Position numbers and translations under genes: made by a program. Below, in pieces: positions 2 to 56,907 of a DNA stretch of 64,000 nucleotides (positions are counted from its first letter, which is position 1; the number at the start of each line of letters is the position of its first letter). Below the pieces are notes generated by a model. The model searched no databases and was not told where the DNA came from. It saw only the letters and a program-made list of their open reading frames with translations. The DNA is from a virus. Its lineage: Duplodnaviria > Caudoviricetes. The stretch covers positions 64,001 to 128,000 of the IMG/VR virus record IMGVR_UViG_3300005077_000489; one strand, written 5' to 3'.

Positions 2-175
2 AAGGCAAATAACATTCCCGTCATATTTATTACAGGGTTAGAATATAATGTAGAATTATATCAAGAAGCGAAAAAGATTAGTGAGAATGATTCTGGTGCT
101 GGAATAAACACGGAACTTGTTCGGAAGCCTATTTCTATACATAAGTTAACGGAATTAGTTGATAAGGTAGCGTAG
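2..175 (+). CDS. Response-regulator receiver (CheY-like) protein, 5'-truncated by window edge
   Basis: Not in ORF track. Frame 2 reads KANNIPVIFITGLEYNVELYQEAKKISENDSGAGINTELVRKPISIHKLTELVDKVA*, with the REC beta4 IPVIFITG and conserved KP motifs. Its stop TAG overlaps the GTG start of the kinase (TAGTG at 173-177). Confidence 0.75.
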   Translation, partial: KANNIPVIFITGLEYNVELYQEAKKISENDSGAGINTELVRKPISIHKLTELVDKVA

Positions 176-3036
176 TGGACCCACTAACATATATAAATGT
201 GTTAATTATAGACGACGAAGAAGAAATAGTATCTTTATTTTCTAAGATGCTGTCAAGGTCTACTTTTCCCTTTTTTTCTGTTACTACTTGTTACGATTTG
301 GAGTATCTTAACTGTAATATTAACAGTAGTGTTGACGTGGTCTTGCTAGATTTGAATCTAAAATCTTCGCGGGGACTAGAAACTTTAAAACGTTTTTTAT
401 TAATGTGCCCAAAAACCCCAGTTGTCGTTATTACAGGAAGTACAGAAGTAGGTTTAGCCTACGAGTGTTTTCAATTAGGTGTTAGTGACTTCATAATAAA
501 ACCTAACGTAAGCGATATTCTTTTACAAAAGGTTTGTGTATATTCTATTATTCGTCATAAGGCTTTAGCAGAACTAGAACAAACGCAAGCTAAATTATCT
601 GGATTCATGGATGCAGCTCCGATAGGGTTAGGTACGGCAGCATACAGAAGAATTATATCTGTAAATTCTTTTCTGTGTAAAATGTTGGGGTATAGCGAGG
701 AAGAGTTGGTAGGACAAGATGCCAGAATCATATATTCTGATGAGGAGGAATATCAAAGAGTAGGGAATCTAAAGTATAATAATTTTAGAGAGCAGAAAAA
801 AGTAGCAATAGAGTGCAAGTGGAAAAAGAAAACAGGAGAAATAATAGACATCTATTTGTGTTCAAATTTCATCAATAGTGAGGATTCCTCCGCTAACGTT
901 ATTTTTACTGCGATGGATATTACAGAGCTTAACGAAGCAAAGAAACAGATAGAGAAGGCGAGGGATAAAGCACAGAATTATTTGAATATTGCTGGAACTA
1001 TGATATTAGCTCTCAATAACAAAGCTGAGGTAGTGCTAATTAATAAAAAGGGATGTGAGATAGTCGGACTACCACAAGAAGAGGTTTTAGGAAAGAATTG
1101 GATAAATAATTTTGTGCCTTTGGAGTCTCGTGAAGAAACCTGGTTAATTTTTAATACCTTAATGTTTTCTAAAGAGGTAATAGAAGACCATGCCCATATA
1201 AACTGGATAGAGTGCAAAGGCGGCGGTAGAAGACTTATAAAGTGGCAAAATACAATAGGTAAGACTAATGGATACATCCTCAGCTCTGGGGAGGACATAA
1301 CTGATGCTCATTATATGCAAGAAGAACTACGTAAGAGCGAAGCAAAATATAGAAGTGTGGTGGAAACTGCGGGCGAAGGAATAATTATAACACAGAATGA
1401 GGTTGTTAAATTAATAAATAAAAGTATTACAGACTTATTTGGATATACTGAAGAGGATATGGTTGGTCATAGTATGTATGAATTCTTACACCCAGATTCT
1501 GTTGATGAAGTCAAGTCTAATCATTTAAAGAGAATGGCGGGGGAGATATTAGATAGTAAGAATTATGTCATAAAGGGTTTTGATAAAAGTAGAAATATTA
1601 AATATGTGGATTACCGAGTAACAACTGTAGATTGGGGAGGTAGCCCTGCCTCCTTGGGTTTTGTTAGTGATATAACCGAGAAGTTGACATTGGAACAGAG
1701 GCAGCATCTTATTATTGATATACTGCGTGTATTAAATGAGCCTTATTCAGGCAAACAAACTGTTAAAACTATTTTGGAGAAAATACGGGAATTTACCGGA
1801 GCCGATGCTGTGGCTATACGTTTAAAAGATGGTCATGATTATCCTTATTTTGTCTACAAAGGGTTTTCTAAAGAATTTATAGATGCAGAAAACTATTTGT
1901 GTAAGTATGGAGCAGACTCGGGGTGCCTAGTTACAGAACCTAGTGGTAAGCCTGTATTAGAGTGTATGTGTGGTTGTGTAATAAGGGGGTATGTGGATAA
2001 GTCCTTGCCTTTTTTTACTGAAAATGGTAGTTTCTGGATCAATGGTTCTACTTCATTACGTCAGATAACACCAAAGGAGCTGATGGGTAACACTAGGAAT
2101 ACGTGCAATACGGAGGGCTACGAATCTATAGCTATAATTCCCTTAAAAGCCGGTGAAGAGATTATTGGTACATTACAGATTAATGATAAGAGGGAATATT
2201 ACTTTAGTAAAGAATTAATAGAGTTTATGGAGCGGCTAGCTGCTAGTATTGGTGTGGCTGTAAAGAGAGTATGGACTGAAGAAGCTTTAACAAGAATAGA
2301 AATTGCTAAGACACAAGATTTACTAGAGGCGTCACGCTTTTTGAATGCAGGAATAGCACATGAACTTAGGACTCCTTTGCAAGCTATATTAAATTCTTTT
2401 GAATACATAAAAACCGTGTCTTCGGAGGAATGTGCCGATCAAGAAAGCCAGTGTAATTGCAAAGCAGAAGTTTCTGAAATAGCTTCAGAGGGTATAGATA
2501 GAACTGATTATGCTATACAAGTGCTTGACTCATTAGCAGAATATTCAAAAATTGCCTCTAGTAGTGAAAAACATTTAATTAACCTTTTTATAGAATTGAA
2601 GACAATATTGACAACTTTAAGGTATACTGACCAGTTTAAGTCATTTACTGACGATACACTTAAATTAGAAGGTAAGCCTATCGGTTGTTCGATTAGAATG
2701 AATCGTGTTGATTTTCAGCAATTAATTGTCAATTTGTGTAAGAACGCCAGAGAGGCAATACAACACGATGACCCTGTCATTGGTATCACATTATACACAG
2801 ATAATAATGATGCCATAATAAGAGTTAGGGATAATGGTAGAGGAATATCACATAAGATAGGTAATAAGATATTTGAGCCATTCTTTTCTACCAAGGATAA
2901 TCCCGAATCACAAAGTCAGGGGCTCGGTCTGGCTATCGTAAAGAATATAGTTACCGCTTATGGAGGAACTGTAGATTATAATAGTCGCCCGGGCGACACG
3001 GAGTTTATAGTTAGATTTCCGTGTGATAAAGAATAG
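175..3036 (+). CDS. Hybrid sensor histidine kinase (REC-PAS-PAS-PAS-GAF-HisKA-HATPase_c)
   Basis: REC: VLIIDDEE, VLLDLNL, VVVITG, FIIKP. Three PAS starts (FMDAAPIG..GYSEEELVGQ; YLNIAGTM..EEVLGKNW; VVETAGEG..EEDMVGHS). GAF with CMCGCVIRG..GSFW..EGYESIAIIPL. H-box AHELRTPL; N/G1/F/G2 boxes NLCKNAREA, DNGRGI, FEPFFSTK, GLGLAIV. Confidence 0.95.
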   Translation: MDPLTYINVLIIDDEEEIVSLFSKMLSRSTFPFFSVTTCYDLEYLNCNINSSVDVVLLDLNLKSSRGLETLKRFLLMCPKTPVVVITGSTEVGLAYECFQLGVSDFIIKPNVSDILLQKVCVYSIIRHKALAELEQTQAKLSGFMDAAPIGLGTAAYRRIISVNSFLCKMLGYSEEELVGQDARIIYSDEEEYQRVGNLKYNNFREQKKVAIECKWKKKTGEIIDIYLCSNFINSEDSSANVIFTAMDITELNEAKKQIEKARDKAQNYLNIAGTMILALNNKAEVVLINKKGCEIVGLPQEEVLGKNWINNFVPLESREETWLIFNTLMFSKEVIEDHAHINWIECKGGGRRLIKWQNTIGKTNGYILSSGEDITDAHYMQEELRKSEAKYRSVVETAGEGIIITQNEVVKLINKSITDLFGYTEEDMVGHSMYEFLHPDSVDEVKSNHLKRMAGEILDSKNYVIKGFDKSRNIKYVDYRVTTVDWGGSPASLGFVSDITEKLTLEQRQHLIIDILRVLNEPYSGKQTVKTILEKIREFTGADAVAIRLKDGHDYPYFVYKGFSKEFIDAENYLCKYGADSGCLVTEPSGKPVLECMCGCVIRGYVDKSLPFFTENGSFWINGSTSLRQITPKELMGNTRNTCNTEGYESIAIIPLKAGEEIIGTLQINDKREYYFSKELIEFMERLAASIGVAVKRVWTEEALTRIEIAKTQDLLEASRFLNAGIAHELRTPLQAILNSFEYIKTVSSEECADQESQCNCKAEVSEIASEGIDRTDYAIQVLDSLAEYSKIASSSEKHLINLFIELKTILTTLRYTDQFKSFTDDTLKLEGKPIGCSIRMNRVDFQQLIVNLCKNAREAIQHDDPVIGITLYTDNNDAIIRVRDNGRGISHKIGNKIFEPFFSTKDNPESQSQGLGLAIVKNIVTAYGGTVDYNSRPGDTEFIVRFPCDKE

Positions 3037-3053
3037 GTTAGGAGGATTTTGTT

Positions 3054-3659
3054 ATGGAGTGTAAAATAAGAAATATTACAAATGGCTACGGCTGGGTCTT
3101 GAAGCACCAAGTAGGACCTAATGAGAGCTTGGATTTAAGAAAGATTTTTGCTGGTTTCTGCCAACCTAAGGTAAGTTCCAGAGAGGATTTAACAAAACTT
3201 AAAGCTGCAGAGAAACGTGGTAGTAAGATTCCATTTAAAGCGGCGTGGTCCCCAGACCAGTTTGATGCATTCGTTGATTGGGTGCAGAATGAGGTTGCTA
3301 CGGATAGGCGTAAATGGGTATTCGAGTTTTCTGATATTGATAACGGGGAGGAGCCGGTTCAAAAGGTAAAGGCTACTAGAGCACCCGTCGATTCTACTAA
3401 GATTAGGAAATCCGAAAACAAAAAATCTACATCGGGGACTAGAGCAGTGAGGCGTAAAATCTCTAAGGATGAATATACGGCTAAGCAAATAGCTTGGTTT
3501 GAATATAACGACCAAAATAAGAAGGTTATATCTGAGTGTAGTGATGTACGCAAATTGAAAATGGCTCTTAAGTTAGCCAGAAATTTAGCGGGTCAAGAGC
3601 GTGTCAGAATATTAATAGAGGAAAGAATAGTAGATTTAGGGACAGAAGGAATTAGTTAA
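3054..3659 (+). CDS. Hypothetical phage protein (201 aa, basic, helical C-terminus)
   Basis: ORF with AGGAGG RBS; its stop overlaps the next start (TAATG). No motif recognised. Confidence 0.7.
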   Translation: MECKIRNITNGYGWVLKHQVGPNESLDLRKIFAGFCQPKVSSREDLTKLKAAEKRGSKIPFKAAWSPDQFDAFVDWVQNEVATDRRKWVFEFSDIDNGEEPVQKVKATRAPVDSTKIRKSENKKSTSGTRAVRRKISKDEYTAKQIAWFEYNDQNKKVISECSDVRKLKMALKLARNLAGQERVRILIEERIVDLGTEGIS

Positions 3660-4219
3660 TGACTCTTGTACCAACAGAGTTTTTGGATGCTTTTACTGAG
3701 GACCAAAGGCAATTAATTAACGATCTAAGTCGTTCAATAAAAATTGGATTGAGTCCAACTAAGGAAGATTGCCCTAATTGCTATTATGATGGTATGGCTG
3801 GGTCCTCAGCAGCTATTCATACATCTTTTGTTGGTTCAATAACTGTTTTTGCCGGGACTGCAGACGAGAGGACTTATACTGCAGTCCCTTTTAATAACAT
3901 ATGCCCAATATGCAGGGGTAAGGGTTACCTAGTTAGTTCTAATGAGAAGACTCTTTCTGCACATGTGTGGTGGTATAGTAACGATAAGGTAGGTCAGAGT
4001 TATCCAGATTCACCCGTAGGTTATTCAGGACAGAATGTTGTTAAAATAAAAAGTCATAGCGATAATTATAGTGACTTCAAAAATGCTCTCTATTTTGTAA
4101 TAGACGGGGTAACAGTGTTGCCTAGTTCTACCCCTGTCCTACGCGGGATGGGTACGTCCGAAGGTATAGTGGAAATCTTTTGTAAAACATCTGACTCCAG
4201 TAAGGATGTAAAGAAGTGA
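3659..4219 (+). CDS. Putative head-closure/neck protein with CxxC...CxxC zinc-finger motif
   Basis: CPNC...CPICRGKG motif of the kind seen in neck proteins of large phages; lies immediately before the tail completion genes. Confidence 0.55.
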   Translation: MTLVPTEFLDAFTEDQRQLINDLSRSIKIGLSPTKEDCPNCYYDGMAGSSAAIHTSFVGSITVFAGTADERTYTAVPFNNICPICRGKGYLVSSNEKTLSAHVWWYSNDKVGQSYPDSPVGYSGQNVVKIKSHSDNYSDFKNALYFVIDGVTVLPSSTPVLRGMGTSEGIVEIFCKTSDSSKDVKK

Positions 4220-4829: not shown

Positions 4830-5623
4830 AATTAACTAGACAAGAAGATATAAGTGTTTATTTATACATAAAGGATATGGTAATAGGACCGCGGTATTAT
4901 GAGTCTACCATAGGAGACTCGTTAACACAAGTAGAAACAAACCTATGGAATATAGATTATGATGAGGAATTGGATATACACCCATTTCAAAGACCCGAAT
5001 ACTCTGGTCTTGGACGTGGCTTGTTATATTTTGATCATTTAGGGGAGACATGTTTGTTTGGTATAGAACAAGTTAGTTCTCTACGAGTGTATCAGGGTGC
5101 CACTGTAGCATCTGGTTATCGTGTTAATTATTTAAAAGGACAAATTGAAACTTCACAGGATTTGAGTAACTATTTGGTAGACTATGAATGGAATTATGTA
5201 GCTGTTATAGATGCGTGGCCTTATGAAGATGTTCCTGCTCTACCTATAATCAGTATAGAAATGCAAAGCGGTGATAAATCACCTCTACAGATAGGTGGCG
5301 GAGATATCAGAAATGCATCCTGGAACCTGGAGATATTTGCTAATAATAAGGGCGAGCGGGATGATCTATTAGATACTATTTATAATGAATTATATTTACG
5401 CAGATGCAGTATATATTCCTTGTCCAAAGGTCTCCCTCTGGATATGAAAGGATTTTATAATTTAGAATTTGATAGTTCTATTAATAATGAATATAAATAT
5501 TTACATTTTGAGAATATAGAGAAACGTCTCACTGGTTTACCACGTTGGGGATTTTATAGTCAGGAACTTATAAACAGATATAGAGCACAAATTACTTTTG
5601 ATACCATTGCCTATAAGTTATAA
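4826..5623 (+). CDS. Putative tail terminator protein
   Basis: LPIISIE...LQIGGG...WNLEIFANNKGERDDLLDTIYNEL pattern typical of tail terminators; directly upstream of the major tail gene. Confidence 0.65.
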   Translation: MKLTRQEDISVYLYIKDMVIGPRYYESTIGDSLTQVETNLWNIDYDEELDIHPFQRPEYSGLGRGLLYFDHLGETCLFGIEQVSSLRVYQGATVASGYRVNYLKGQIETSQDLSNYLVDYEWNYVAVIDAWPYEDVPALPIISIEMQSGDKSPLQIGGGDIRNASWNLEIFANNKGERDDLLDTIYNELYLRRCSIYSLSKGLPLDMKGFYNLEFDSSINNEYKYLHFENIEKRLTGLPRWGFYSQELINRYRAQITFDTIAYKL

Positions 5624-5795
5624 CAATTATTTAACTAACTTTGTTTTAAACAGTGAATGAACTTTCTATAAGGAAAGGGATAGGATTTCACCTTGATTAA
5701 TCGATATGGATGTCTATGCCCCCATAGCGTAAAACGTAAGTTTTTTGGCATCCAGTCTATAAATTAGGACCTTTTCGTTAGGAGGAAAAAATAAT

Positions 5796-7526
5796 ATGGC
5801 TAAACGAAATCGTATTCTTTACGCTTCCCAGGCTGTGCATGCTAATGGTCATATCCTTTATCGTGTGCAGACTTTGGGAAGTAATACGACCTTTACCTCT
5901 GAAGACGTATTTGAACTTGGACACCTTGATAGGGTTGATGTTGTTGACGATGTCCCCGCCGTAGCAGTGGCAATCGATACCAACGACTTCGGTGCACCTG
6001 AAACTATGGCAACACTAGCTGGTCTGAACCCGTCACGTATGACTGGTTCCCCTAGTTCTAGTGGGTCTTATTTACGTACAGATATTTCTTGTACCGGTTC
6101 CGGAGTTAGATACTATCATGGTGTGGCTCTCTCTCATTTTAGTGATGCTTATACCAAGATTTGGGCTCCCGTCCAAAACGAGGCTTCTTTGGGCACTCTA
6201 GATGATGACGTTCAAATGACATTATTTATGGATAAGGTTTATGTTAACTCCATGACTCTTACGTATAATGTTGGAGCCACTGCCACAGAGAATTACGCGG
6301 GTGAAACCGATAATAAGATGTGGTTGGTCAACGGCGGGAAATTTGTATCCCAGGAAGAATGGGATATTTTATCACCGTCCAACAGTCAAGAGTTGTATTT
6401 AGGTATACCCAATTCTGCTAGTATCCCAGCATTGAGTAATTGTAAGACTGCTTTCTTATGCTTTACTGATACTGGCGAAGAAGGTATTATGGTTAAAGCT
6501 TCAACAGATAAGTATGGTACTGTATACCCAGTTCGTACTGCCGCCGCAAGTGGTGTATTCGGTTATACCTCGGCTACACAGACCCTAACTTTACCTACTA
6601 ATGCTGCTACATTGTGGCCTTATGCATCCAAGGGGTATAAGATTGTGGCTGTTTATGCTGCTAGTCAGTACGCTGCTTTGAACGGTAATACTGCTGCTTC
6701 TGATCCTGCAAAGGATTCGAAAAGAGTATATGCTAAGTATTTTGAGTTAGTATCCTCAACAGATGCTCCCGATGCCCCTGCAAACTCTCTTCCAGAGGAT
6801 GTTGGTGCTGTAAGGCAGGGTCAAGTTGAAGTATATCTAGTTGACCCAGACTTGCTGTCTGGAAAGACTAATGCCGATTGGTCTATGTTACTTCGTATGC
6901 AGTCCGTTACTATTACTGCTAATCCGACAAGAACGCCATTGAATGAGTTGGGGCATTTACGTCCTTATGCTCGTCCGATGAATTTCCCTGTTGAAATTAC
7001 CACTAATACTACAGCGACTGCTTCCGACCTTGAGTTATGGGCGACATTTGCCGGTTATACCCCCGCTGATTATGACGCTGGTGGGTCCGGAACTGATATC
7101 GCCTTGACTAATCTAATGTCTAAAAATAATCTTATTCTTATAATTAAGATTTTCCAACAGACAGATGATGAGGCCGGTGGAAGTGGTATGGATAGAAAAG
7201 CTATGCTTCCTACCATGGCTGGTAAAGAGTATTATGATTGGGACGGTGCTGGTACATACCCGTCTTATAATCCGGCTAGTGCTGGAATGGTTGGTTCATG
7301 CGTTGAACCACCGAGGGAACGACCCCTTAAGACTGTTATAGTCCCTGGTTTGAAGATTACTGCCGAGAACTTCCAAAACGCAGCCGGAGGCGGCGGAGGC
7401 GGAGGTGCTGGTGCTACTCAGGAATTTAATTTCCGTTCGACCAACGAACTATATGTAGTAAAGGGTGATGTTGATATTCAGGACGTTAATTGTGTAGAGG
7501 TTAATGCTTCTGCAGACTTGTTCTAA
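5796..7526 (+). CDS. Major tail tube protein with two tandem tube-fold repeats
   Basis: Strong RBS, position before chaperones and TMP, tube-type motif R-x-Q-x14-ELGHL present twice (aa 23-44 and 367-388). Confidence 0.8.
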   Translation: MAKRNRILYASQAVHANGHILYRVQTLGSNTTFTSEDVFELGHLDRVDVVDDVPAVAVAIDTNDFGAPETMATLAGLNPSRMTGSPSSSGSYLRTDISCTGSGVRYYHGVALSHFSDAYTKIWAPVQNEASLGTLDDDVQMTLFMDKVYVNSMTLTYNVGATATENYAGETDNKMWLVNGGKFVSQEEWDILSPSNSQELYLGIPNSASIPALSNCKTAFLCFTDTGEEGIMVKASTDKYGTVYPVRTAAASGVFGYTSATQTLTLPTNAATLWPYASKGYKIVAVYAASQYAALNGNTAASDPAKDSKRVYAKYFELVSSTDAPDAPANSLPEDVGAVRQGQVEVYLVDPDLLSGKTNADWSMLLRMQSVTITANPTRTPLNELGHLRPYARPMNFPVEITTNTTATASDLELWATFAGYTPADYDAGGSGTDIALTNLMSKNNLILIIKIFQQTDDEAGGSGMDRKAMLPTMAGKEYYDWDGAGTYPSYNPASAGMVGSCVEPPRERPLKTVIVPGLKITAENFQNAAGGGGGGGAGATQEFNFRSTNELYVVKGDVDIQDVNCVEVNASADLF

Positions 7527-13900: not shown

Positions 13901-16900
13901 AAAATAGCGTTGTAAAGTATCTGCAAGAGGTTGGTCATGATATTTTTGGTGCTCCAATTAAATCTAAAGAACTAGCTGATGAAACTTATATAAAGGATAT
14001 AGTTAAGAGATGGGCACAGTCTCCTCAGGGTCCTATAGAAGAAAATATTGTTGAATTAATAAATACCTATTTGGGTCATGAAGCACGTAAGATTTCTACC
14101 GGTCAAGTTCTTAAGGGTGTAGCCTCTACAGCCTTTACTAGATTCGGTACAGAAGTAGAGGAATCGGTCAGGGAAAAAGCTAAAAAAGGATTGTATCCAA
14201 AGATAAAATTTATGGATGTGGGTGAATTATCAGATGTTCCTAAATCATTTGAAGAATTGATATCTGAGTTATTGTTGGTTCGAAAAGATTTAGACCCAGC
14301 AAAAGTTTCTAAGGCTCTAGAGATGATAAAAGGAACTCAAAATATGATTATGATGTCTTCTGACCATTTAAAACAATTAAAAATTAGTCCTATAGAATAT
14401 GGTACTGGTAGAATAATGGGGGAGGATGCTCCGAGCCTAGAGGAGCGTCGTAATTTTGTTGGTAACTTACTTGGTATAAATTTGACCTCAAAAGAAGCTC
14501 TAAGGAGTGCAGGAGATATTACTGCTCAAGTTAAAATGTTAGAGCAAGATATGGAGAGAATAAGAAGGCTATATAAAGAATCTACTGGTGGAGATTTAAA
14601 TAAAGAGGTTCCAGTAGACCTACGGATACTAGCCTCCGGGATAGGGAAGAAGTCACGTATGATCGGGGGTAACTTAGCAGAGATTATCGCAAATAATATT
14701 ATAGGAAACCTACGTTCCAGACCTTTAGAAGGTGAGACGTTAATGGAACAGATACAAAGGTCTCCCCTTGCTAAGGTTCTTGTGGAGAACACCGCCTCTG
14801 GTCGCGAAGTTATGAAATTGGCAGAACTATATAAGGGGGCTTTAGGATTACGTGGGAAGTATGGCGAAGAGTTTATATATAAACAAAATGATGCATTAGA
14901 AAAAGCGGTTGCAGGAATGATGCATGTTATGATTATGAAAGAACCTAAAGGGTGGGTACCTAAAGGTGCGGCCGAATTAGAAGCTGGTTTGTCAAAGATG
15001 ACAATAGATCCGCATGGATGGTTTGGTCTTAAGAAATTGTTTGATCCACAAGGTGCGTTGACACGTGAATTTACCATGCGGGCTTTTCCTGAAGCACGGG
15101 AAGCTGGTGCTTTCTTATCGGCATTTCGTTCATTTGCTAAATTACGTGAAGAAGAGATGACCAGAGCAGTGAAGACGGGAAAAGTTAGAATGGTCGGTGA
15201 AAAGCAATTAGTTGATGAAGACAGAGAAGATTATATTGCTCCTCTTAAAAGAAAGGCGACGGTAGCCGATCTGTCTAGAACTATTTTTGATCCATTTAAA
15301 TACGGACCTTCTATGGCTTTGGAGTTACCGGAGCCATCCGAGGATATGAAACGTTTGATAGAGGAAGAGATTAAAGAAGGAATAAAAAAAGGTATACAAG
15401 TAATGCCGGTCAAACGTTTGGTTGAAATTCCAGAGATTAGTGCACGACAGTATGTGACTTCAGAGACCGGTGAAGTATTACCCTCTACGGTATCCAGGTA
15501 TCTCTCAGAACTGGTGGATGCCACAAGAAAGTATCATATATTAGGTAGCCGAACTAATGATATAAATAAATTAGATATGCAGCGAGAGTTCGTTGGGACC
15601 GCTATTGGAGACTTCTATAATAGGATACATCCTATCAGGGACTTGAGCGTAAAACTTGATTTGCTCAGTAAACTGGAAGAGCAGGTTTTTTCCTTAGTGG
15701 GAAGTAAACCTATGCCACAGTTTTCCGGGAAATCTTCTGTCATCGCTGACGCACAGGACCCGACTAAAGTATGGTTTCCTACTATGTACAGCCGCCTCGA
15801 CGACGAAACAAAGAAATCTTTAGAAGAGGATATGCGTAAAGGTATTTCTATAAAAGATGCTTATAATAAATATTTTAAGGAGTTGGAACAATCAGTTTCT
15901 AATATAAATTTCAGGGCTCGTTTTCTTCGCGACCTTATAACGGGACCTGTAATTTATACTAAAGGAAAAGAGGATATTGGGCGTGAAGTAAAAACAGATA
16001 TATCAGAGGGTAATGATCCCCGCTATCAAAATATTAACCTAGTCCAAGATAAGATGTTATCAGATATTATCACTAACTTCAAACAGTACGAAGCTGAAAC
16101 AGATGCCTACGGGAAAACTATCGGAATAAAGTCTCGTTCTTTATTGGACTTACAGTATAATGAAATAAGACGTAATCTAAAAGAATATTATGATGAATTA
16201 TCTAATATGATATTCGGTAGAGGTATCCTGTCTGATGTAGTTTTGAAGAAGAAGATACCTGCTCTCTACCTGACAGCTCAACAACGACCTTATGACCCTA
16301 GCGAAGCAATAAAATCTGCTATAGACAAGTTAAACAAATTCAAAACAGAGGTTCCCAATGCTGAAGAATTGAAGACGGACTTAGATAAGGCTCTTCGAGA
16401 TGTAGAAACTTTCAAAGTAACAAAACCATCCCAGTGGGTCCGTCCCGGAGAAGTTCGTATAGGCGAGAGAGACCTAAAGGAATTACAAAAAGCGGGAATG
16501 GCTACTCCTGAGTTACAAAAGAGTGTGGATAGTGTTTATGCCTTGATAAATAGGCAGCCTACTACAGATGAATTTAGTTACAAGGCGATGCGGCTTACAG
16601 TGGATGATGCTCTAAAAGACCTGTCTGGAATAGCAGTAGTTCCCGGGTTACCAATAGGCGACTATCCAGTTAGTTCTAAGATGGAAGAGGCTTACAAAGC
16701 GTTAGAGGATTTACGTAGCAAAAAAGTTAAGGCTATAGAAGAAGAACTTTCTAAGTCTAAAGGTAAAATGACTTCTACTGTCACTAAGTTGCAGAGGGAT
16801 ATAGATGAGATAGACCGAGCGTCCAAGGACTTGCGGCCTATGTACCATGAAGCCTCTTTGGGTTTAGATTATGACGGAGATATGATTTCTATTCATGCTG

Positions 16901-19900: not shown

Positions 19901-22900
19901 AGAACATAAGGAGAGCATCTAGAGGTTTCGTTCCTGCTGATTACCCTCATATTAAACCTATTTATGATTTTCCTAAATTCTTAGATACAGAATCTTCGGT
20001 ACAATACAAAAGTCATGGTGACCAAGTAAAAATGAGTGCTGTACCTCTAAGGTGGGGTAATATAGAAATAGGTTATGGTACTAAAAACAAACCATTAGAT
20101 CCAGCTACAGCTAATGCTAGATATAGGCCTTTTATAGAAGCTACCCAGGACCTAGTCCCAGTAATGAAAGATTGGGTAAAAGAGAACAAGCATCGCATAG
20201 ATTTATATGGTGAGTTTGGCGGGTTAAAAGATAAATTAGTATGGTTTGATGCTAAGGTAGCAAACAAAACTTTGAGTCCTGATGATTTTAAAAAGTTAGC
20301 TGAAGAGTTAAATCTGAAAACTACTGAAGAATTATATAGAGGACCAGTAACGAAAGAGATAGTTGACAAAGTATATCGTCAAGTCACTCCCTTCAGAAAA
20401 TTAGAAGAAGGCGTTGTGGCTAAAGGATTGGAGATTGATGAAAGAACAGGCTTCCCTAGAATGGCTAAGTTTAAGACTAAGCCTTATCTAGTGGGGGAAG
20501 AGACGCGTTATCCTTGGCAAGACTGGGGTAGTGCAGAAAGGAAAATAGAGGAGAGGCATAAGAAACTTATGGAGAGAGCATTTTCTCCATTTGATAACAT
20601 TGAAGAAGGGATAGAACAGGACCCTACAAGATCTTTTACACCCACGGAAGCCCAGCGTAGAGAAGGCTTATATCCAGAAAATTGGCCGGTTGTAGAAACT
20701 ACCAAAAAACGTGTTGAAGAGTATCTTAAAGGTTTAGATGATAAATTTTATCAGTCTGCCGAGAGAGCGAAAGAATTTCCTAAAGGTACTAAGTTCTTAG
20801 TACAAGCCCCGGGTGTAGAGCCCATTCCTTCCTATGCTAAGGATGCTGTGGTTATTTCTAAAGAAGAATTAAGGAAAACCATCTTTGGTAAAGGGATGCC
20901 AGACTTACCTTATGACCCTGTTCTTGTATTAAATTCTAGAAGACAGGTTCCTAGGTACCCTGAAGCAATTCCTATTTCTAAGGAACGCGGTTTTATGTTT
21001 CCTGGCGAGGCTAAAGAGGGTGATGTAGGTAGGTTTGTCATACACCAGCATGATGCCTTAAGGGCGGGTCCCCACCATGACATGCGTATTGAGTTAGGTG
21101 GTCAATTACAGTCTTGGGCAGTTCCAGAATTTATTCCGGAAAAGATGGGTGAACGTAGGTTAGCCATAGGTCCTACGGCACACCATGCCATTGACTACTA
21201 TCAGAAGGGAGATTACGATATTCCCAAAGGTTTTTATGGTGCCGGTCATATGTCAACATTTGATACGGGTAAAGCTACTGTAGAAAGTGTAAAAGAAGGT
21301 TATGTTACTGTACGATTAGAGGGAGTAAAAGGACTAGCTGATGGTACTTATTCTATCATAAAATATGAACCTAAAGGAGAAGATACAAGAAAAGGACAGT
21401 GGTTAGTGTCTAAGGTTAGACCATTGTCAGAAAGAGACCCAGAAAGAGCAAAGAAATTATACGGTTTTAGTCCATCCATAGAGTTAGATGACGAATTGGG
21501 GGCAGGAGAGGGTAGGTATGGACAGGGTAATATAAGGTTATTTACCCCTGGTAATAGAGCAGAGATGCGGGCTTTTATGAATGTATTACAACATGAAAAA
21601 GGACACGCAGCAATAGATTTTGCAGCACCTAATATTGCTAGGGATATAATGGCTGGAAAACAATTTCCTGGTGTTGATACCAAGAAACTGCAAAGTTATT
21701 ATATGCAGAAGTATGGGGACCGCGGAGATGATGAGGAGGCAGCAGCGAATGCATTAGAAGAGGCTATTGCAGGCGGGCTACGTACAGACGAAGACCAAGA
21801 AATATTAGACGAAATTAGCAAACTGCAAGATGTCATAGGTGAAAAAGCCGGAATGGCATTTGCAGGTACATCACCACAGAACGAACTTTCCTATATTAGA
21901 AAACTATTCTCACCAGTACAACAACCGTACACAGTTTATACAGATGCAGGCTCTAGAGGTAACCCCGGTCCTGGGGGTGCTGGTGCCGTAGTATTTGACC
22001 CACAAGGTAAGAAGGTTTCAGAACTTAGTAGATACTTAGGAGAAACCACAAGTATGGCTGCAGAATATCAAGGGCTTATTATGGGATTAGAAGAAGCCCT
22101 TAAACATTCTGCCAAAAACATTCAACTTAAGTCTGATTCACAAGTAATGGTGGGGCAGATGAGAGAGGAGTTTAGAGTTAAGAATGAACAAATAAAAGAA
22201 TTAAAAAGACAAGCAGACTTACTTAAAGCACAATTCGAAGGTTTTAATATAGACTATATTCCCAGAGAACAAAATAAATTAGCAGATAAATTGGCTAACA
22301 GGGCTATGGACTCATATCTTAAGTCATATTCGCCTGCCGAAGATGACGTAGACCGTTTTGGTAGTCCTATTATTTATGATTATAATAAATTGACAAGTAG
22401 CCCTAATTGGCTTCCCCGCGGTATGACTGCTAAGGCTGTTTCCGCTGCTGTAAATGGACAATTTATAGGTGCGGCATCTTATTCAACTGCCTCTCCTGAA
22501 TACACAGGGTTTGGGGAATTATCTATAAAACCGGAATATAGGCGTAGTAGTAGAGTTGCTGGTAATTTGATGGAGAAGGTAATAATAGATTTAATCAATA
22601 GTGGTAACTTCAAACATACACGTCCTCTCACCCCAGTCGCTGATACTCCAGAAGCCATCTCTTTTTGGGAGAGTATAATAAAAAGAACACAGAAGCCTTC
22701 AAGAAATATAAAAGAGGCATTCTTAGCAAATAATGTGACTCCTGATGATCTTTCCATGGTTGCTGGTAGATTACAGGCTGAAATAGACATAACCAAGGCA
22801 TCTAAGTTTACTGATGTAATAAAGAGGATCATTGAAGAACCTCATAATTTAGGGGAAGAACTTTCTAAACTGACAGAGACTAATCAAGCAAAAGTAATTA

Positions 22901-25900
22901 GAGCTACCCAGGCAGTGTTGGCTAAAACAAATGATGCCTCTTATCCAAAGATAGGTATTAAACCTACTGCTTTTTCTGAGGGATTGGATTTTAAGTCTAA
23001 ACTCCGCTCTGAAATAACATCATTATATAATTACGGTAAAGAAGGTGCCAAACTATTTTTTGGGTCTTCTGGTTCTGGTTCTTCCATAACTGAATTTACA
23101 AAGAATATAGCAAGGGGTATATGGGATGACCTAGGTAGATTGGGAAAATTCTCATTAGGTACAATGCGCGGTTTGAGGGCGTATGCACCTGTAGAAGATT
23201 TAGTTCGTAGTGGTGAGATAAAGATTGATGACACCCCATTTAGAGCCCGGGGGCTAACGTCCGAGAGAGTCAGAAACTATTTAGGTAGAGGATATGCTGT
23301 TGGTATGGGTGGGGGCGGTAATATATATATGCCTCCTGATATTATACAATCATATCAGAATGCCACTGGCGGACTTAAACAACAGTATGGTCAATCTATA
23401 ATGAAAACTTATTTTCATGAAAAAAGGCATCTTGATATCGATGCTGCTCCAGAGAAAATAAAGGAAAAGTGGAGACAACTTGCATCTGACAAGAATACTG
23501 ATATAGGTAAATTAGTTAGTAGCTTTATAAATGAGGCTATGCTTAGCACTTCCAGGGACGTATATAAGAAACAATTTGAGGATGCTCAAAAGAAATATGG
23601 AGAAAATATAGGTTCCGATTTCTTAAATTCTTTTGCTGCTAGGTGGGAAGCCTTACAAGAGATAATTGCTGGTCATCCGGAGATGCGTTCTGCTAGTAGT
23701 AATCAACAGTTAGTACAAAAAATTCGCAGTGATTTCTATGGAGATGTAAATAAGCCTATACCTGGATTTGGTCCCAGTGCTAGTGCCTTTTCTCCTAATT
23801 TAACAGATTATAAAAATTTCAAGAACATTAAAAAGGGCTACGAAGAAGAGTCGGATACTGGACTATTACATAAGAAAAAGGTAGCTTTAAAATTTGGGAT
23901 TCCGCCATTAAAAGGTCTGTTGGGAGAAGATATCGATATTTCGGAATCTCTACAATATTTAATGCATCCGGCTATGAGGGAAAGAAGACTTATGGGACTC
24001 CCCCAAAGAATGATAGATTCAAGAAATCCTTACTTAGCTGGGATGTTACGTAAAGGTTTTGGTGCTGGTGCTGGCTTATCCCTAGAAGGAGAACTAGGAG
24101 TAGGTCCTTACAAAGTAGAATTAGGTGGTGTAGGCTTTGGCAGATATGGTAAGAAAGATGAGGAATTTTTTGCTGATAAACCCAGTGAGATAATAGGACT
24201 TTCTAGTTTGGAACCCGTCAAACGTCCAATTGATTACGTGGGTTTGAGCCCCGGTGCCGAACACGGTTTGTTGGCCGCCCTTAGGGCAAATACTAACGCT
24301 CTACTACGTTCATCTTTTATTACGAAGGATATGCCCGTTGGGTTACTTCCTACTATTATGCAGGACATAACTAAAGCGTACAGGGTTCCTGCTACTGATG
24401 AGACCCTAGGCAGTGCTTTTAGAAAATTTTTTGGCGGCACTTACGACCTTGCAAAGGGTACTATGAAAGGTGCTATAGGTCTTCCTTATACATTAATAAA
24501 ATCTCCTTTGGATATATTTAAATCCGGTAAGGATACAGATTCCAGGTTTTGGACTGGTGTTGGTCAACAATTCAATGGTATTTCTGCGGGATTATCAGAA
24601 CTTTCTACATACAAGAGTGGTGCTTTCTTGGATACAGATTTAAAAAGTGCCTATTCAACCAAATCAAAATCTATTTATGATATAAAGAATATTGTAGATA
24701 TGGAGTACGATAAATTAGTAAGAAAGTTAGAATTTGGTTTGGCAGTGATGGAACCCGCAGATTTAAAGCGTAATATATCTGATGTATTTACGGCTTATTC
24801 GGACACGATGGATAATATGTTTAAAAACCCGTCTAAAGCCTTAGCCGAGGAGGCTGCTAAACAAAAAGCAATACTGGAATCAGTATTGGGAAACCAATGG
24901 GAGACTCCCCCAGCGACACAGCGATTAATACGTGGTGGTGCAACGCTGGGTCATGGGGTGTCTTCTATTTATAATCGATTACTGAAAACTTTGGAAGAAA
25001 TAGGTTATGCTACGGGTGGTGTCGGAAAGGGAGTAGGCTATTTAGCAACACACCCTAAAGACATATTACCCGGAATTATGTCTTCTATCCGAGGACTATT
25101 ACCAGGGAAGGATATTACTGGTGTCGGGTTGTTGGGTGAAACTTCCAGACAATTAGAGCAAATCTATGGTACCGGGATGTTAAGAACTTCTGATGTAGTA
25201 AAGTTAGCCGGGTACGGTGTATCACCAGAACAAAAAGTTGGGGGGTTACTCTCGCGTGCTTCAAAATATCAACCTGTGACAGCCGCGGACCGTGCTATGA
25301 GAGAAGTTCTTGGTCTCAGGGAAACCGGTGCAATTGTGGGAGATATCACTAATACAAAAGGAATCTTGGGTGCTCTAGGGCATGTTGTGGTCAAACCCAT
25401 ATCTGCTATTGGTGAAACTATGACAGATATGGGTAAGGCGTTTGGTTCCTTTAATTTAGTAGAGATGGTAAAAGCTCCTCTAATCGGTCTCTTAAAGCTA
25501 GCCCCAGTGATCGGTCATACCGTTGCGGGTGTTCAAGAATTTAGGGAAGAAGTAGAGAAGGGTGCTTCCCCTTACACATCATTTGTTAGCGAAGTCGGAG
25601 AACAAATCATAGAGGGAATTACTATTGCATTAGGTGCCGCCGCAGGTACTAGAGTTGGTCGTCCTGCAGCCGCCGGGTTAGCTAGTATAGGTGGTAGGGG
25701 TCCTATGGCAGCCGCTAAATATTTACCAATTGCCACTGGTATAATAGGTAGTATTCTAGGAGGAATTGGTGGTGGTAGAATAGGGGAGTCTTTTGAAAAA
25801 GGTATGTTCTCTATGGTGGGACAGACCTCTCCTAAGTCTGTAGCACGTTCTATTTGGGAGCAAGAACGTGATAAGCGATCTCTAGAGGAAGAGGGTCTAG

Positions 25901-28900
25901 ATAAAATACTACCGGATTACCTGGATGAATCCAAAAAAGAAGAATTAGCCAATATGCAAAAATGGTTGGTCCGTGGTGGCGTAGTTGGCGGACTATATGG
26001 TGGTATGAAGGTTCCTCTTCAAGGTGGAACACTTTCACGTTTAGTCTCTATGGTCGCGGGTCCTACTCTAGGTTATCTCGGTGCCAAAAAATTAGGAGAT
26101 GTCACGATGGGTCGTGCTTCAGAGAAGGCTAGAGAAGACTATATGGAAAAGACTCTTGGATTTCGATCTTTTTCTCCATTATCTTCACAAGAGAAATGGG
26201 ATATTCCTAGGGAAATACGCGGGGTTACGTCTGAGAAACTCAAAGGAAAAACCTTAGATGAAATAATTTCTACTTTCAAAGAGTTACAATCTGAAACGTT
26301 TAGTGGTAGCAACTTAGATAAGCAGAAACTGTTGACATCACAGAAGGCTGTTACCCAGTTTATGTCCGAGATCTATCTTAGCAGAATTGAAGAGTTGAGA
26401 GATCAACTGAATGTCGCTGCTAAAAGTGGTAATCAGAATTTAATGGCAAAACTCCGAGCAGAGATTGATAGGTATATAGTTTTTTATATAGGGAATGTAC
26501 TCAAGTCTTCTACTGGTGCACACGCAGCCGCCGATGCTTTTAGGGTGCGGTCTATCGGTGGTTTTGTAGGTTCAGAGGACTATGAAGCACGTTCTACAGG
26601 TCGTCCCCAATCTTTCGATGAGGTTATAAGTCTCGATAAATTCTTGGAGAGGGGTCTTAGCGGTGTATCTAGGAAGGCTGTAAATCTATTAAGGAATTTA
26701 TCTGATACGGGTGCTTCTCCAAGGTCTATATATCAAGAAATAATGCCAGGAATTCTGAAGTCTTCTACGAATATCCCAAGAGACGTTACGGCTGTGCATA
26801 CATATTTGAAATCTGTAGTTCATGAACTAGGACAAACCCCAGATGTTAATATAGACCAGTACCGTTATTGGAAGTCATTGGAAGAATATTTCCGGGCCAC
26901 CGCAAAGCAATACAGAGGAAGTAGTCGGTTCGACTTTGGAGATCTACGTTCTGCTGCTCCGATAACACCAGTTGGTTTACGACCGGAGGACCAGGAGACC
27001 TTTAATGCAAAAACTGTAGATTACTATAAAAAAATGTTGCAGGCCAACCCAATGTTTAAGGAGGGTGCTACTGTACCACTAGAACTTAAAGTTACGGATG
27101 AGGCTGGTAATGCTTTAAAAAATATAAGAGTTGACTTAACAAAAACAAAACACGCGGCGGACGGCGTTTCCATGTCCATAACAGATATGAATAAAGTTAT
27201 GGCACAGAAAAACACTCTGTTTGGTGCAGTAGAACTAACTTCTAGATTTATTTTGGCGGGAGCAACTGTGGGTGGGTTAGTTAATGAACTAAGGACTATG
27301 GCTTCCACTATTGCTCAAGTAGAGTCTGGTATGATGGAACTAAGAAAGGTTATGGAACCCTCTATAACCAACTTTGACGAGATACGTAACTCTGCTCTTA
27401 ATATGGCTAAAGAAATGGGTGTTGGTATTAATGATGTCATACAATCTATGGTAGTTTTCGGGCAACAGGGTGATACACAAGCACAAGTAATAGAGAAAGC
27501 GAGAACATCTGTTATGGCTGCCGCTATAACTGATATGAAAGCTGCAGAAGTCACTGAATATCTTACATCTGCGGTAAAGCAATATGGAGAAGAGATAAAG
27601 GAAACACAACGTTTTCTGGATTCTTGGATAAAGGTTGACGTACAGCATGCCATAACGGCTACTGAATTATCCAAAGCAATGCTGCGTGTTGGTTCCGCTG
27701 CTAAAGAAGCTGGAGTCGGTTTCCATGAATTAAATGGTATTGTGACTGGTATTGGCTCTGTTACTAGACAAACCGGTAGAGAAGTTGGTACTGCTCTACG
27801 TTTTATTTTTAGGAATCTCCAAACTACTCAAGTTAAAAACTATTTGCGTAATATACTAAATATTGATACGTTGTTACCGAGCGGTTCTATAAAACCGGCT
27901 ATGAAGATATTTGATGAATTACAGGCAAAATGGCAGAATTTCTCTGATGCTCAAAGGATGCATGTTGCACAATTGGTTTCCGGTGCTAGACATTATAATG
28001 CTTTTCTAGCAATGATGAATAACTACTCAGAAGTATTAACTGCTACACAAGATTCTATACACTCTGAAGGTTATGCTCAAGCTCGTTTGAATATGCAAAT
28101 GGATACGCTAACTAAGAAACTAGCACAAGTCAGAGCGGCTTCAGAAAGATTATATGTTGACTTTGGTAAACTAGCCCTGGGTCCAATGAAACTCGTAGCG
28201 GATGCCACAACTTCTATGATTACTGCTTTTACTCTAATCCCTGATACTGTAAAACAAGCTATATTAGCATTAGGTACTTTTGCCGCTTTTTCCGGTAAAA
28301 TAGAAAGTGTTATTTCCGGTTTGCAAAATTTTGGGGTGGCTAGCGGTATGTCAGATACCTTTTCTAATTTTATGTCTTTTGCTACCTCCCCAATTTCTTC
28401 AGTAATGAAAGCGTTCTCTTCTGTTCAGGGGGTCTCTGGGTTATCAGAGGTAACAACTACATTAGGAAAGATGGCATTCATTGGTATCTCTGCTGGTAGA
28501 TCTTTTAATAGTTTGTTCAGCAGTATAGGCAAAGGCGCAGGAATTGCCCTTGGTTCTGTGTCACTACTCGCTGCTGCAGTTGGAGCTCTGAGTGATTCAC
28601 ACACAGGAATGTTTAAATTGGCTGGTGCTTTCGGGCTTATAGGAGCTTCTGCTCTTATTAGCAGCGGTATTATAGGGTCCCTAAGCGGCTCCACTACAGG
28701 TTTTATTGGTTCCTTAGCACCTCTGGCTGTAATTGCTACTGTTATCTATAAAAACTGGGATAAGTTATCAGACGTTTTTGGCGGAGTAGGAAATAGTATA
28801 GAACGTTTACAGAAACAGACTGAAGGTATAGGGAGTATCACTAGCAAGCGTTTAGAAATTAGTGAAATAACTACAATATTTGGTAAGGCGAACTTATTAG

Positions 28901-55216: not shown

Positions 55217-55957
55217 ATGGCTGGTTGTAATTGTTGTGTAACTTATGATTCTCAAATTATAGTTGGTGATGCTGATATAAGTAATCAAACTATTAGTATA
55301 TCAGTAGATTCATCACAAGAAATAATCTGGGAAGATAAAACAGACCAAGAGTGTGACCCTCTAGGAGATGAGAAGGTTTATCTCTACGGTCCGGGGAAAG
55401 CTTCAGTACAGATTACGGCATATCCATTTGCTCAATATACAGATTATACTTTTGGTTTTGAATGTCCTGTAAGTGTGAATGTAAATATACCATGGCGTTA
55501 CGTCTATGATTGTAGAGGTTGCGAACCATGTATAGACCCCGCGACAGGGGAGCAAGGTATAATGAGGAAAGGTCGCTATATTGGATTGCCAATGAAGAAG
55601 AAGCAGATTTCTGTTACTGGTGACATTGAGAATTCAAATCTATTTGAGGTGGGAGGTTGTGCTGTCCCTACAACAAAGTTTACTTTAACAGCAGGACCAC
55701 AGTCAATTATAACGCCTCAGCCGACCATGCAATACAGTTGGTTGAAATATCATGGGTTACCTTTTGAATTCGATACGGACCAAGTAAAGACTCCTTTTAT
55801 CATTACAATAAATAATGGTAGCGGTTGTAGTTGGGCATCGGGGTTTAGAAATGTAAGGGCTTATTTAACTAGTTTTTCATTTTCTTTCGCTCCTCCTCAA
55901 GTTCCTACTTGTAGTCTTAGTTTTGATGTTCTTGTAAGCTTCTGCCCAACATGCTAA
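55217..55957 (+). CDS. Cys-rich tail-tip structural protein
   Basis: 13 Cys in 246 aa (MAGCNCC, CRGCEPC, CPTC); beta-rich; tail-tip position. Confidence 0.5.
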   Translation: MAGCNCCVTYDSQIIVGDADISNQTISISVDSSQEIIWEDKTDQECDPLGDEKVYLYGPGKASVQITAYPFAQYTDYTFGFECPVSVNVNIPWRYVYDCRGCEPCIDPATGEQGIMRKGRYIGLPMKKKQISVTGDIENSNLFEVGGCAVPTTKFTLTAGPQSIITPQPTMQYSWLKYHGLPFEFDTDQVKTPFIITINNGSGCSWASGFRNVRAYLTSFSFSFAPPQVPTCSLSFDVLVSFCPTC

Positions 55958-55971
55958 AAAGGAAATTTATT

Positions 55972-56907
55972 ATGAAATATAAAAAATGGAGTAAAGAAGA
56001 AATTGATTTATTAATATATAGATATCCGTCATGTTCAAAAGTTGAATTAGAAGAGATGTTTGATAGGCCTTATTATTCTATACGTAGAAAAGCTTCTGAT
56101 TTGAGGATTAAAAATGAAAAATGGTGGACAGAGGAAGAAGAATTATTGTTTAGGGGTATATATCCTTTTATTAGTAATTTAGAAATTGCAACTATAATTA
56201 ATCGTACAGAGGCTTCTATTATACATAAGGCCAAACGATTAGGTCTTATTAAAAATATAGATATGTTAACGTCTAGGAGAAGTAGTGACAATAGAAAATA
56301 TAATTTTAATACTAGGTATTTTAGAGAAATAAATAATTCAGATAAAGCTTACATTTTAGGTTTTCTTTTAGGTGATGGGAATATTAGCAATAAGAAATAT
56401 CGTATGAGATTACAAATAAACATGCGAGATGAAGAATTATTATACTTTATCAAAATAAAGATGAATGCTAATAATCCTATTTTGTATAAAAAGGAGAACG
56501 ATATTTGTGATTTTAGTCTTAGTTCTTTTGAATTAATAAGGGATTTATCCTGTTATAATATGAAACCTAGAAAAACTTATAATTTAGTTATACCAGATAA
56601 TATTCCTAATAATTTATATTCTCATTTAATAAGAGGTCTTTTTGATGCAGATGGTTGTATATATGTTGGTAAAAATAAGTTAATGGTATCAATTTGTGGT
56701 ACTGGGGATGTTTGTGAATGGATAAAAAAGGTAGGTAAGAAGTTTGTAAATATTAAAGGAAATGTTTACTACTATGATGGTAGGGTCCCAATTTATAAAT
56801 TAGGGGGACGAAAGCAAATTTCTAGATTTGCGGAATGGTTATATAAGGATGCAACATTTTTTCTTTCTAGAAAGTACAATAAATTTGTTGAGGCGGGGGT
56901 GTTATAA
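55972..56907 (+). CDS. Free-standing LAGLIDADG homing endonuclease with N-terminal WxxEE helical repeats
   Basis: Two motifs, KAYILGFLLGDGNI and HLIRGLFDADGCI; N-terminal KWSKEEIDLL / WWTEEEELLF repeats; visibly more AT-rich than flanks. Likely start is ATG 55972 (AAAGGA RBS) rather than 55951. Confidence 0.9.
   Translation: MKYKKWSKEEIDLLIYRYPSCSKVELEEMFDRPYYSIRRKASDLRIKNEKWWTEEEELLFRGIYPFISNLEIATIINRTEASIIHKAKRLGLIKNIDMLTSRRSSDNRKYNFNTRYFREINNSDKAYILGFLLGDGNISNKKYRMRLQINMRDEELLYFIKIKMNANNPILYKKENDICDFSLSSFELIRDLSCYNMKPRKTYNLVIPDNIPNNLYSHLIRGLFDADGCIYVGKNKLMVSICGTGDVCEWIKKVGKKFVNIKGNVYYYDGRVPIYKLGGRKQISRFAEWLYKDATFFLSRKYNKFVEAGVL

Follow-up and report, generated by a model that had tools for sequence, protein, structure and literature searches.

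The sequence considered in this study, which I will call the window, is a stretch of 64,000 nucleotides comprising bases 64001-128000 of a 211,229-bp IMG/VR virus record (IMGVR_UViG_3300005077_000489), estimated to be 86% complete and belonging to an uncultured phage. The window contains a giant open reading frame (ORF) encoding a tail tape-measure protein of 13,616 amino acids, the N-terminal ~3,800 of which constitute an enzyme cassette. The elements of the cassette are, in order, a polymerase-like region, an RNA ligase, a LigD 3'-phosphoesterase, a region with an HExxH motif, and a ribonuclease H (RNase H), and it is the last of these that is the subject of this work. The segment at 21928-22311 (+) has a stop-free translation and lies in frame inside the giant ORF. 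Coordinates of the elements and of individual residues are given in Table 1.

Table 1. Features of the giant tape-measure ORF, in order along the window. Motif and catalytic assignments are predictions.
Feature	Residues	Position	Strand	Evidence
Giant tail tape-measure ORF	13,616 amino acids	10903..51753	+	ORF list and translation; no internal stops
DYDGD, candidate Mg-binding loop of a beta-prime-like RNA polymerase barrel		16867..16881	+	Motif conserved in relatives
RNA-ligase-type nucleotidyltransferase domain	3033-3176	19999..20430	+	Pfam RNA_ligase, E 1.4e-6, 29 bits (cut-off 27)
LigD-type 3'-phosphoesterase domain	3381-3485	21043..21357	+	Pfam LigD_N, E 6.7e-16
HEKGH (HExxH) motif	in zincin-like region ~3486-3674, directly upstream of RNase H	21592..21606	+	
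Type-1 RNase H, Rv2228c/archaeal subtype	3675-3803	21925..22311	+	Pfam, PDB, AlphaFold2, Foldseek
Catalytic Asp (E. coli D10 equivalent)	D3681	21943..21945	+	Invariant column, 44-sequence alignment
Altered T-N-N motif (E. coli T43-N44-N45)	T3716-S3717-M3718	22048..22056	+	
Catalytic Glu (E48 equivalent)	E3721	22063..22065	+	Invariant column, 44-sequence alignment
Catalytic Asp (D70 equivalent)	D3745	22135..22137	+	Invariant column, 44-sequence alignment
Arg in beta5-alphaE loop, where E. coli has His124	R3788	22264..22266	+	Invariant R134 of alignment A5
Catalytic Asp (D134 equivalent)	D3795	22285..22287	+	Invariant column, 44-sequence alignment
Variable segment directly after RNase H	3812-4086	22336..23160	+	End of conserved cassette
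Tape-measure core, PhageMin_Tail	~5496-5690	27388..27972	+	Pfam, E 2.3e-25, 90 bits (cut-off 33.2)

The assignment of the carrier as a tape-measure protein rests on the internal core domain, because the genes flanking the ORF, all on the same strand, gave no match to a tail family in PHROGs or Pfam. The core region (residues ~5400-6900) is matched by 14 PHROG tape-measure families, the best with an E value of 4e-60, and the claim of the original prediction that the RNase H is embedded in a protein of this kind holds, both being parts of the same ORF. With the ligase, the LigD phosphoesterase, the RNase H and the tape-measure core, this single polypeptide brings together several unrelated domains.

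The RNase H is of type 1 and of the Rv2228c/archaeal subtype, with matches that lie far beyond chance. A 328-amino acid piece containing it was compared with Pfam and matched RVT_3 (PF13456) with an E value of 5e-25 (88.3 bits, against a curated cut-off of 21.6) and RNase_H (PF00075) with an E value of 1.4e-12 (48.4 bits, against 25.8), the match extending from about residue 3675 to 3801. The domain also matches PHROG 531, annotated 'RNase H' (E 1e-17). The RNase HI domain at the N terminus of M. tuberculosis Rv2228c (3HST) is the best match among PDB sequences (E 1.9e-26), and other matches are to LC11-RNase H1 from compost (3U3G/4H8K; E 5e-24 for 3U3G), Halobacterium RNase H1 (4E19, E 4e-17) and Sulfolobus tokodaii RNase HI.

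Residues 3655-3815 were modeled by AlphaFold2 from a 44-row alignment (A5). The model has a mean predicted local distance difference test (pLDDT) score of 95 and elements in the canonical order: a three-stranded N-terminal sheet, alphaA, beta4, alphaB, alphaD, beta5 and alphaE. Foldseek found the model to be closest to the same enzymes as did the sequence search, with a template modeling (TM) score of 0.93, a root-mean-square deviation (rmsd) of 1.2 Å and an E value of 6.5e-17 for 3HST, and TM scores of 0.95 for 4E19 and 0.90 for 3U3G. Overall, comparisons with Rv2228c (3HST), the Halobacterium NRC-1 enzyme (4E19) and LC11-RNase H1 (3U3G/4H8K) gave TM scores of 0.88-0.95 and rmsd values of 0.9-1.8 Å, while the enzyme of Sulfolobus tokodaii (2EHG) gave 0.79-0.84 and 2.5 Å; identities in the Foldseek alignments ranged from 27 to 41%. 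The TM score against E. coli RNase HI was only ~0.65, in agreement with the absence from the model of the basic protrusion (alphaC), there being merely 8 residues between alphaB and alphaD. The archaeal-type enzymes share with the window domain this absence, the DEDD tetrad of catalytic residues and an Arg in the beta5-alphaE loop. They differ from it in being free-standing or two-domain cellular enzymes, whereas the window domain lies within a protein of 13,616 amino acids, and in possessing the motif T-N-N where the window has T-S-M.

Two other phages carry giant tape-measure proteins with an RNase H at the same position. One, a 545-kb phage (IMGVR_UViG_3300037484_000435; G001), has a colinear ORF of 14,712 amino acids, the first ~3,845 of which align with residues 1-3811 of the window protein at 63% identity (BLASTP). 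The other, a 256-kb phage (IMGVR_UViG_3300005077_000001; L011), has a giant ORF of at least 4,596 amino acids, aligning with residues 1275-3818 at 47% identity. In both relatives, homology breaks directly after the RNase H. The alignment with the 545-kb phage stops at residue 3811 and restarts at 4087, with an unrelated segment of ~275 amino acids lying between, and that with the 256-kb phage goes from residue 3818 straight to 4097 with nothing between. Since the RNase H occupies the same position in both relatives and homology ends right after it, the domain is, by these alignments, the last unit of an ancestral cassette, one that at least three uncultured jumbo or mega phages inherited from a shared ancestor. 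The H, E, G and H of the HEKGH motif upstream of the RNase H are likewise invariant across the three. The region surrounding that motif found no match in Pfam, and the Atlas clusters nearest to it include the 'polyvalent protein' domains LPD23, LPD1 and LPD5 (scores of 0.89-0.94), which should be taken as a lead only.

The segment that follows the RNase H in the window (residues 3812-4086) has the look of a swappable slot, with 26% identity in the 545-kb phage and no counterpart in the 256-kb phage. A GNAT domain proposed within it was set aside, as there was no match in Pfam and no conservation in the relatives. A fourth giant protein is encoded by a 67-kb contig (IMGVR_UViG_3300037484_001941; L112), 58% identical over the polymerase region, the contig ending inside the gene. 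Scans of viral sequences for further relatives gave only the 545-kb and 256-kb phages and this contig, and a scan of metagenome contigs gave none. No protein of 4,950-15,750 amino acids with an RNase H domain was found, but ORFs of such a size probably lie outside the set of proteins searched.

The four catalytic carboxylates (D-E-D-D) are kept in all three tape-measure copies, and most columns conserved at 80% or more in the family are retained by the window domain. The family was represented here by 287 other domains, drawn from the search of representative proteins described below, from viral loci and from genome loci. Arg stands in the column of R3788 in 91% of these domains, and RNases H of the archaeal type are known to lack the catalytic His (reviewed in PMC9719913). 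The embedded enzyme is probably catalytically active, to judge from its residues and its predicted fold: the retention of the catalytic residues in three copies, one of them with no more than 39.5% identity, points to an activity that has been maintained. Pfam, PDB, the fold and the invariant columns thus concur with the original prediction of an intact RNase HI of this subtype with all four acidic residues.

That prediction also called the enzyme almost textbook, a description that suits the tetrad and the fold but not the T-N-N motif, five to three residues ahead of the catalytic Glu. The two Asn residues are present in 84% and 91% of family domains, respectively, and none of the 287 has Met in the second Asn column, as the window domain does. 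The 545-kb relative also has T-S-M, and the 256-kb relative has T-N-S. In bacterial enzymes, a DNA-strand phosphate is anchored in a pocket to which Thr43 and Asn45 belong (PMC2582618; the concept of the pocket is also discussed in PMC9719913). These differences indicate that the grip on the DNA strand has been altered in a lineage-specific manner and that the catalytic center has been left intact. The loss of the pair of Asn residues from the substrate groove would be expected if the domain had become a module that binds hybrids or other nucleic acids with little or no nuclease activity, serving to tether the incoming DNA or its RNA. I consider this very unlikely, given that the four carboxylates and the invariant Arg and Asn of the subtype have been kept in three copies at 38-40% identity and that the model shows a canonical fold with high confidence.

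The original prediction held that the RNase H is much less diverged than the domains around it and that this signifies recent capture. The identities do not bear out the premise. Between the window and the 545-kb and 256-kb phages, respectively, the RNase H is 70.5% and 39.5% identical, as compared to 64.7% and 48.5% for the cassette on average, 85.7% and 68% for the phosphoesterase, and 63% and 70% for the ligase. In one lineage, RNase H is the fastest-evolving recognizable domain. Recent capture itself is refuted by comparisons of sequence, the argument beginning with the orthologous position of the domain in three phages with cassettes that are only 47-64% identical. The composition of the domain is native, with GC content of 0.393 as against 0.404 in the rest of the gene (0.279 as against 0.297 at third codon positions) and a codon usage at the 17th percentile of deviation within the gene. 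Cellular relatives are distant: a profile-free search of 1.84 billion representative proteins gave 15,207 matches, none above ~50% identity. Identities to 41 good representatives have a median of 42% and a maximum of 48.5%, and the representatives are related to each other to the same degree (median 44%), so that the textbook appearance of the domain is a trait of a slowly evolving family.

The phylogeny that had been proposed as a guide to donor and host was constructed from an alignment of 46 rows, using IQ-TREE and an approximately unbiased (AU) test. The window and 545-kb copies pair (support of 100/99), and the 256-kb copy and a stand-alone, bacterial-looking protein (P0132) join them in a clade of four members with support of 97/90. 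The AU test did not reject a grouping of the three phage copies as monophyletic (p 0.39). P0132, the nearest neighbor in the tree and the closest relative outside of phages, is encoded at L107:3080-4464, directly after a CT398/zinc-ribbon gene, on a bacterial-looking contig of 6 kb that also holds genes for TrkA, a cellulase and a Kelch-repeat protein. The named cellular matches, at most 46% identical, are scattered over Bacteroidota, Nitrospirota, CPR (candidate phyla radiation) bacteria and archaea. No donor or host emerged from this analysis, and with the failure of the claim of recent capture, the RNase H does not reveal the host.

It is the placement of the enzyme that is out of the ordinary. 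Considering the best 80 viral loci with an RNase H of the window type, 78 are small stand-alone genes (130-297 amino acids), many of them in bins of giant viruses, and only the 545-kb and 256-kb relatives embed the domain. A search by tblastn of 50,697 GenBank phage records turned up two weak hits, both outside of tape-measure genes, and no RNase H in a tail tape-measure protein was found in the literature searched. The top-scoring representatives (P0002-P0036) are proteins of ~270-930 amino acids with two or three tandem RNase H domains. The enzyme itself is an ordinary one, while its carrier and its companion domains are new: RNase H is a new cargo of the set of enzymes that are injected or fused to tape-measure proteins.

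Two further ORFs of the window, both on the plus strand, may be mentioned. One, at 55951-56907 (318 amino acids), lies just downstream of the tape-measure gene amid unrecognized genes, matches PHROG 4645 'endonuclease' (E 9e-44) as well as HNH endonuclease families, and probably encodes a homing endonuclease. The two ends of the other, at 175-3036 (953 amino acids), match different PHROGs (phrog_857, phrog_10912 'kinase' and phrog_5982), all with E values of ~1e-29.

The original prediction also placed an RNA polymerase in the same protein. What supports it is a conserved motif, LD(Y/F)DGDM. It appears as LDYDGDM at residues 1987-1993 of the window protein, the sole instance of DxDxD in the first 3,000 residues, and as LDFDGDM in the 545-kb and 256-kb phages. 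There are besides two colinear, sub-threshold matches to PF00623, at residues 1877-1901 and 1988-2012 (E 0.38 and 0.62), the only ones in the genome. Confirmation of a polymerase fold, with its two double-psi beta-barrels, did not follow, and a beta-prime-like polymerase in the cassette is thus a candidate identified by its motif. There is precedent for such an identification: gp96 of Thermus phage P23-45 was recognized as a polymerase by a conserved DFDGD in an otherwise unrecognizable sequence (Chaban et al. 2024, PMC10770324). The two proteins are alike in being giant tape-measure proteins with a motif of the DFDGD type N-terminally. The product characterized in P23-45 is a virion RNA polymerase, flat and clamp-less, that is injected and proposed to transcribe the DNA while it enters the cell (PMC10770324). 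It differs from the window protein in its length of 5,002 amino acids and in that Pfam finds in it only Peptidase_M23. No sequence similarity between the two proteins is detectable, the best BLASTP E value being 0.09.

Tape-measure proteins exit the tail before the DNA and are present in few copies per virion. An enzyme embedded in one would for these reasons act in cis on a single entering genome, rather than in bulk. The reading I favor, while holding it tentatively, agrees with one of the functions put forward in the original prediction: the RNase H would enter the cell along with the rest of the cassette and cleave RNA:DNA hybrids made by the tethered polymerase on the incoming genome. The N-terminal cassette, leaving the tail before the DNA, would arrive in the cytoplasm beside the entering genome end, where the polymerase would begin transcription, as has been shown for gp96. 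Few copies of RNase H, held in cis, would then cut the RNA strand of persistent hybrids (R-loops) left by a minimal polymerase, freeing the template. The RNA ends so produced would bear 3'-OH groups, open to extension by a DNA polymerase or to trimming and sealing by the adjacent phosphoesterase and ligase. I infer that the enzyme is delivered into the cell, that such hybrids are its substrate and that the other domains cooperate with it; its presence in the virion is suggested only by analogy with gp96.

Several observations are in accord with an injected RNase H that serves the tethered polymerase. The tape-measure core and the LD(Y/F)DGDM motif, a signature of the kind known from gp96, occur in one protein. 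The catalytic tetrad of the RNase H is intact, and the cassette has evolved as one unit that ends with this domain. Part of the transcription of phage Goslar depends on its RNase H, Rhc, and the pattern of this dependence suggests the removal of R-loops (bioRxiv 10.64898/2026.10.01.755736), and polyvalent proteins that are injected have been proposed to jump-start transcription or replication (PMC5512222).

A number of considerations weigh against this reading. The place of the cassette in virions and its entry into cells are taken from analogy. An AlphaFold2 model of residues 1300-2110, which include the polymerase motif, had a pLDDT of 40, and the region found no match in a PDB profile search or in the Atlas. 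The RNase H lies ~1,700 residues from the polymerase motif, yet directly beside the phosphoesterase and ligase. The enzymes RNase H, ligase and phosphoesterase are all missing from gp96, the sole characterized tape-measure polymerase, which means that a tethered polymerase does not need an RNase H. Transcripts that remain hybridized are destroyed by RNase H. Finally, the change from Asn to Met in the DNA-phosphate pocket, unique with respect to the 287 family domains, may mean that the substrate is not a standard hybrid.

The proximity of the RNase H to the ligase and phosphoesterase brings up a different function, in which transcription plays no part. LigD phosphoesterases resect tracts of 3'-ribonucleotides, and ligases of the Rnl2 type favor a 3'-OH ribonucleotide at a nick. 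The three enzymes could therefore process the ends of hybrids, RNase H cutting the RNA in RNA-primed or RNA-patched DNA, the phosphoesterase trimming 3'-ribonucleotides or 3'-phosphates, and the Rnl2-like ligase sealing the nick. Such processing might repair, join or circularize the injected genome at its ends or gaps, or might yield a mature RNA primer for the start of replication. I regard this as unlikely, although it is the strongest rival of the reading above. Ligase, phosphoesterase, HExxH region and RNase H are contiguous and colinear in all three phages, and since gp96 has a polymerase without the three enzymes, they appear to be one added set. The Rv2228c/archaeal subtype, moreover, can cleave at an RNA-DNA junction. 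On the other hand, the co-occurrence comes from only three related genomes, and the RNase H has evolved faster than its neighbors (39.5% identity as against 68-70% in the 256-kb phage), which is not what one would expect of a tightly co-adapted triad. The genome ends and nicks of this phage are putative substrates. Priming by a polymerase, with the aid of RNase H1, has been suggested for jumbo phages that lack primase (Iyer et al. 2021, PMC7824862), a precedent that would count in favor of a role in priming, but the window phage encodes its own DnaG-type primase and DnaB helicase, so that it does not require priming by the polymerase.

Elements of both readings might be combined: RNase H, polymerase, phosphoesterase and ligase would together make a tail-delivered device for RNA-primed end joining or origin firing. 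RNA would be laid on the incoming genome, then cut by the RNase H with its altered pocket, and trimmed, sealed or handed over. I consider such a device improbable. If it exists, it would let a jumbo phage circularize, repair or start to replicate its DNA ahead of any phage gene expression.

The location of the RNase H in the tape-measure gene might also be a matter of expression only, the protein being a polyprotein from which HExxH peptidases release a replication enzyme that removes Okazaki primers. The phage has the makers of RNA primers, a helicase of the DnaB type and, next to it, a Toprim primase of the DnaG type, encoded at G000:C1:183461-185321, ~55 kb past the end of the window. Conserved HExxH motifs flank the RNase H region, which is the sole type-1 RNase H found in the 211-kb record, one in which no 5'-3' exonuclease of the flap endonuclease (FEN) type was found. 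There is no additional stand-alone RNase H gene in this genome, unlike that of the 545-kb phage, which has two small ones of the RVT_3 type (L005 and L006, at G001:C1:466528-466878 and 456538-456732). Such absences are weak evidence, however, as no DNA polymerase is recognized either: families A, B and C, as well as FEN and Prim-Pol, went undetected in a record that is 86% complete. The retention of the embedded copy by the 545-kb relative beside two stand-alone genes argues that the embedded copy has a role of its own. Furthermore, from the usual timing of phage genes one would expect late expression of a tape-measure gene in a structural neighborhood, once replication is under way, and the RNase H or Pol I of the host could remove primers. 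A replicative function is in my estimation quite improbable.

I would give just about as little credence, or slightly less, to the second function put forward in the original prediction, in which the injected RNase H counters host defense, destroying RNA within hybrids formed by defense systems. Its targets could be the crRNA:DNA R-loops of Cascade or Cas9, RNA-guided Argonaute complexes, the msDNA-RNA of retrons or the templates of defense reverse transcriptases. The rapid evolution of the domain in one lineage and its unusual substrate motif are compatible with an arms race. The hybrids within Cascade or Cas9, however, are largely enclosed by protein, and the few copies of a tape-measure protein are suited to action in cis on one genome, not to the destruction of multicopy msDNA. 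The analysis turned up no evidence related to defense, and no phage RNase H acting as an anti-defense factor was found in the literature searched. The carrier does fit the concept of polyvalent proteins, according to which injected, multidomain proteins counter restriction and CRISPR (PMC5512222), and the HExxH region of the cassette provides its LPD-family leads, but RNase H is not mentioned in the catalog of those proteins (PMC5512222).

Polyvalent proteins (Iyer, Burroughs, Anand, de Souza, Aravind 2017, PMC5512222) resemble the window protein in the number of enzymatic domains carried on one polypeptide. They have interspersed, zincin-like HExxH regions, proposed to process them, to which the HEKGH region described here may correspond. 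Delivery along with the DNA has been proposed for them, its purpose being either a quick start of transcription or replication or the countering of host defense. Unlike the window protein, the cataloged proteins include no RNase H and no fusions to tape-measure proteins (0 occurrences of each); those of phages are fused to head proteins of the MuF or portal type (PMC5512222), whereas the window cassette is fused to a tape-measure protein.

Goslar Rhc (RNase H-clamp; Chimalliviridae), for its part, is similarly an RNase H encoded by a phage, and its catalytic activity supports replication and also transcription by the phage polymerase, probably through the removal of R-loops (bioRxiv 10.64898/2026.10.01.755736). 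Unlike the window domain as proposed here, Rhc is not part of the virion: it is a protein of its own, joined to a clamp-like domain, and it acts within the phage nucleus with a non-virion polymerase and a DNA polymerase. A further parallel in arrangement lies with the retroviruses. Their reverse transcriptase-RNase H is carried in the virion, and the RNase H, covalently tethered to a polymerase, acts on the hybrids that this polymerase makes on the entering genome. The partner in that case is a reverse transcriptase engaged in an obligatory conversion of the genome, while in the window it is a proposed DNA-dependent RNA polymerase of a double-stranded DNA phage.

The enzymes known to be injected by phages are polymerases and a handful that modify the host. 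If the cassette is delivered and active, then very large uncultured phages import a nuclease for RNA:DNA hybrids along with a polymerase, a ligase and an enzyme that cleans ends. This would widen the role of the virion in the first seconds of infection, which could encompass the start of transcription, the protection of genome ends, the priming of replication or the countering of defense. Because the RNase H is small and its fold is predicted with high confidence, its activity and its unusual substrate groove are accessible to tests in vitro without a cultured phage.

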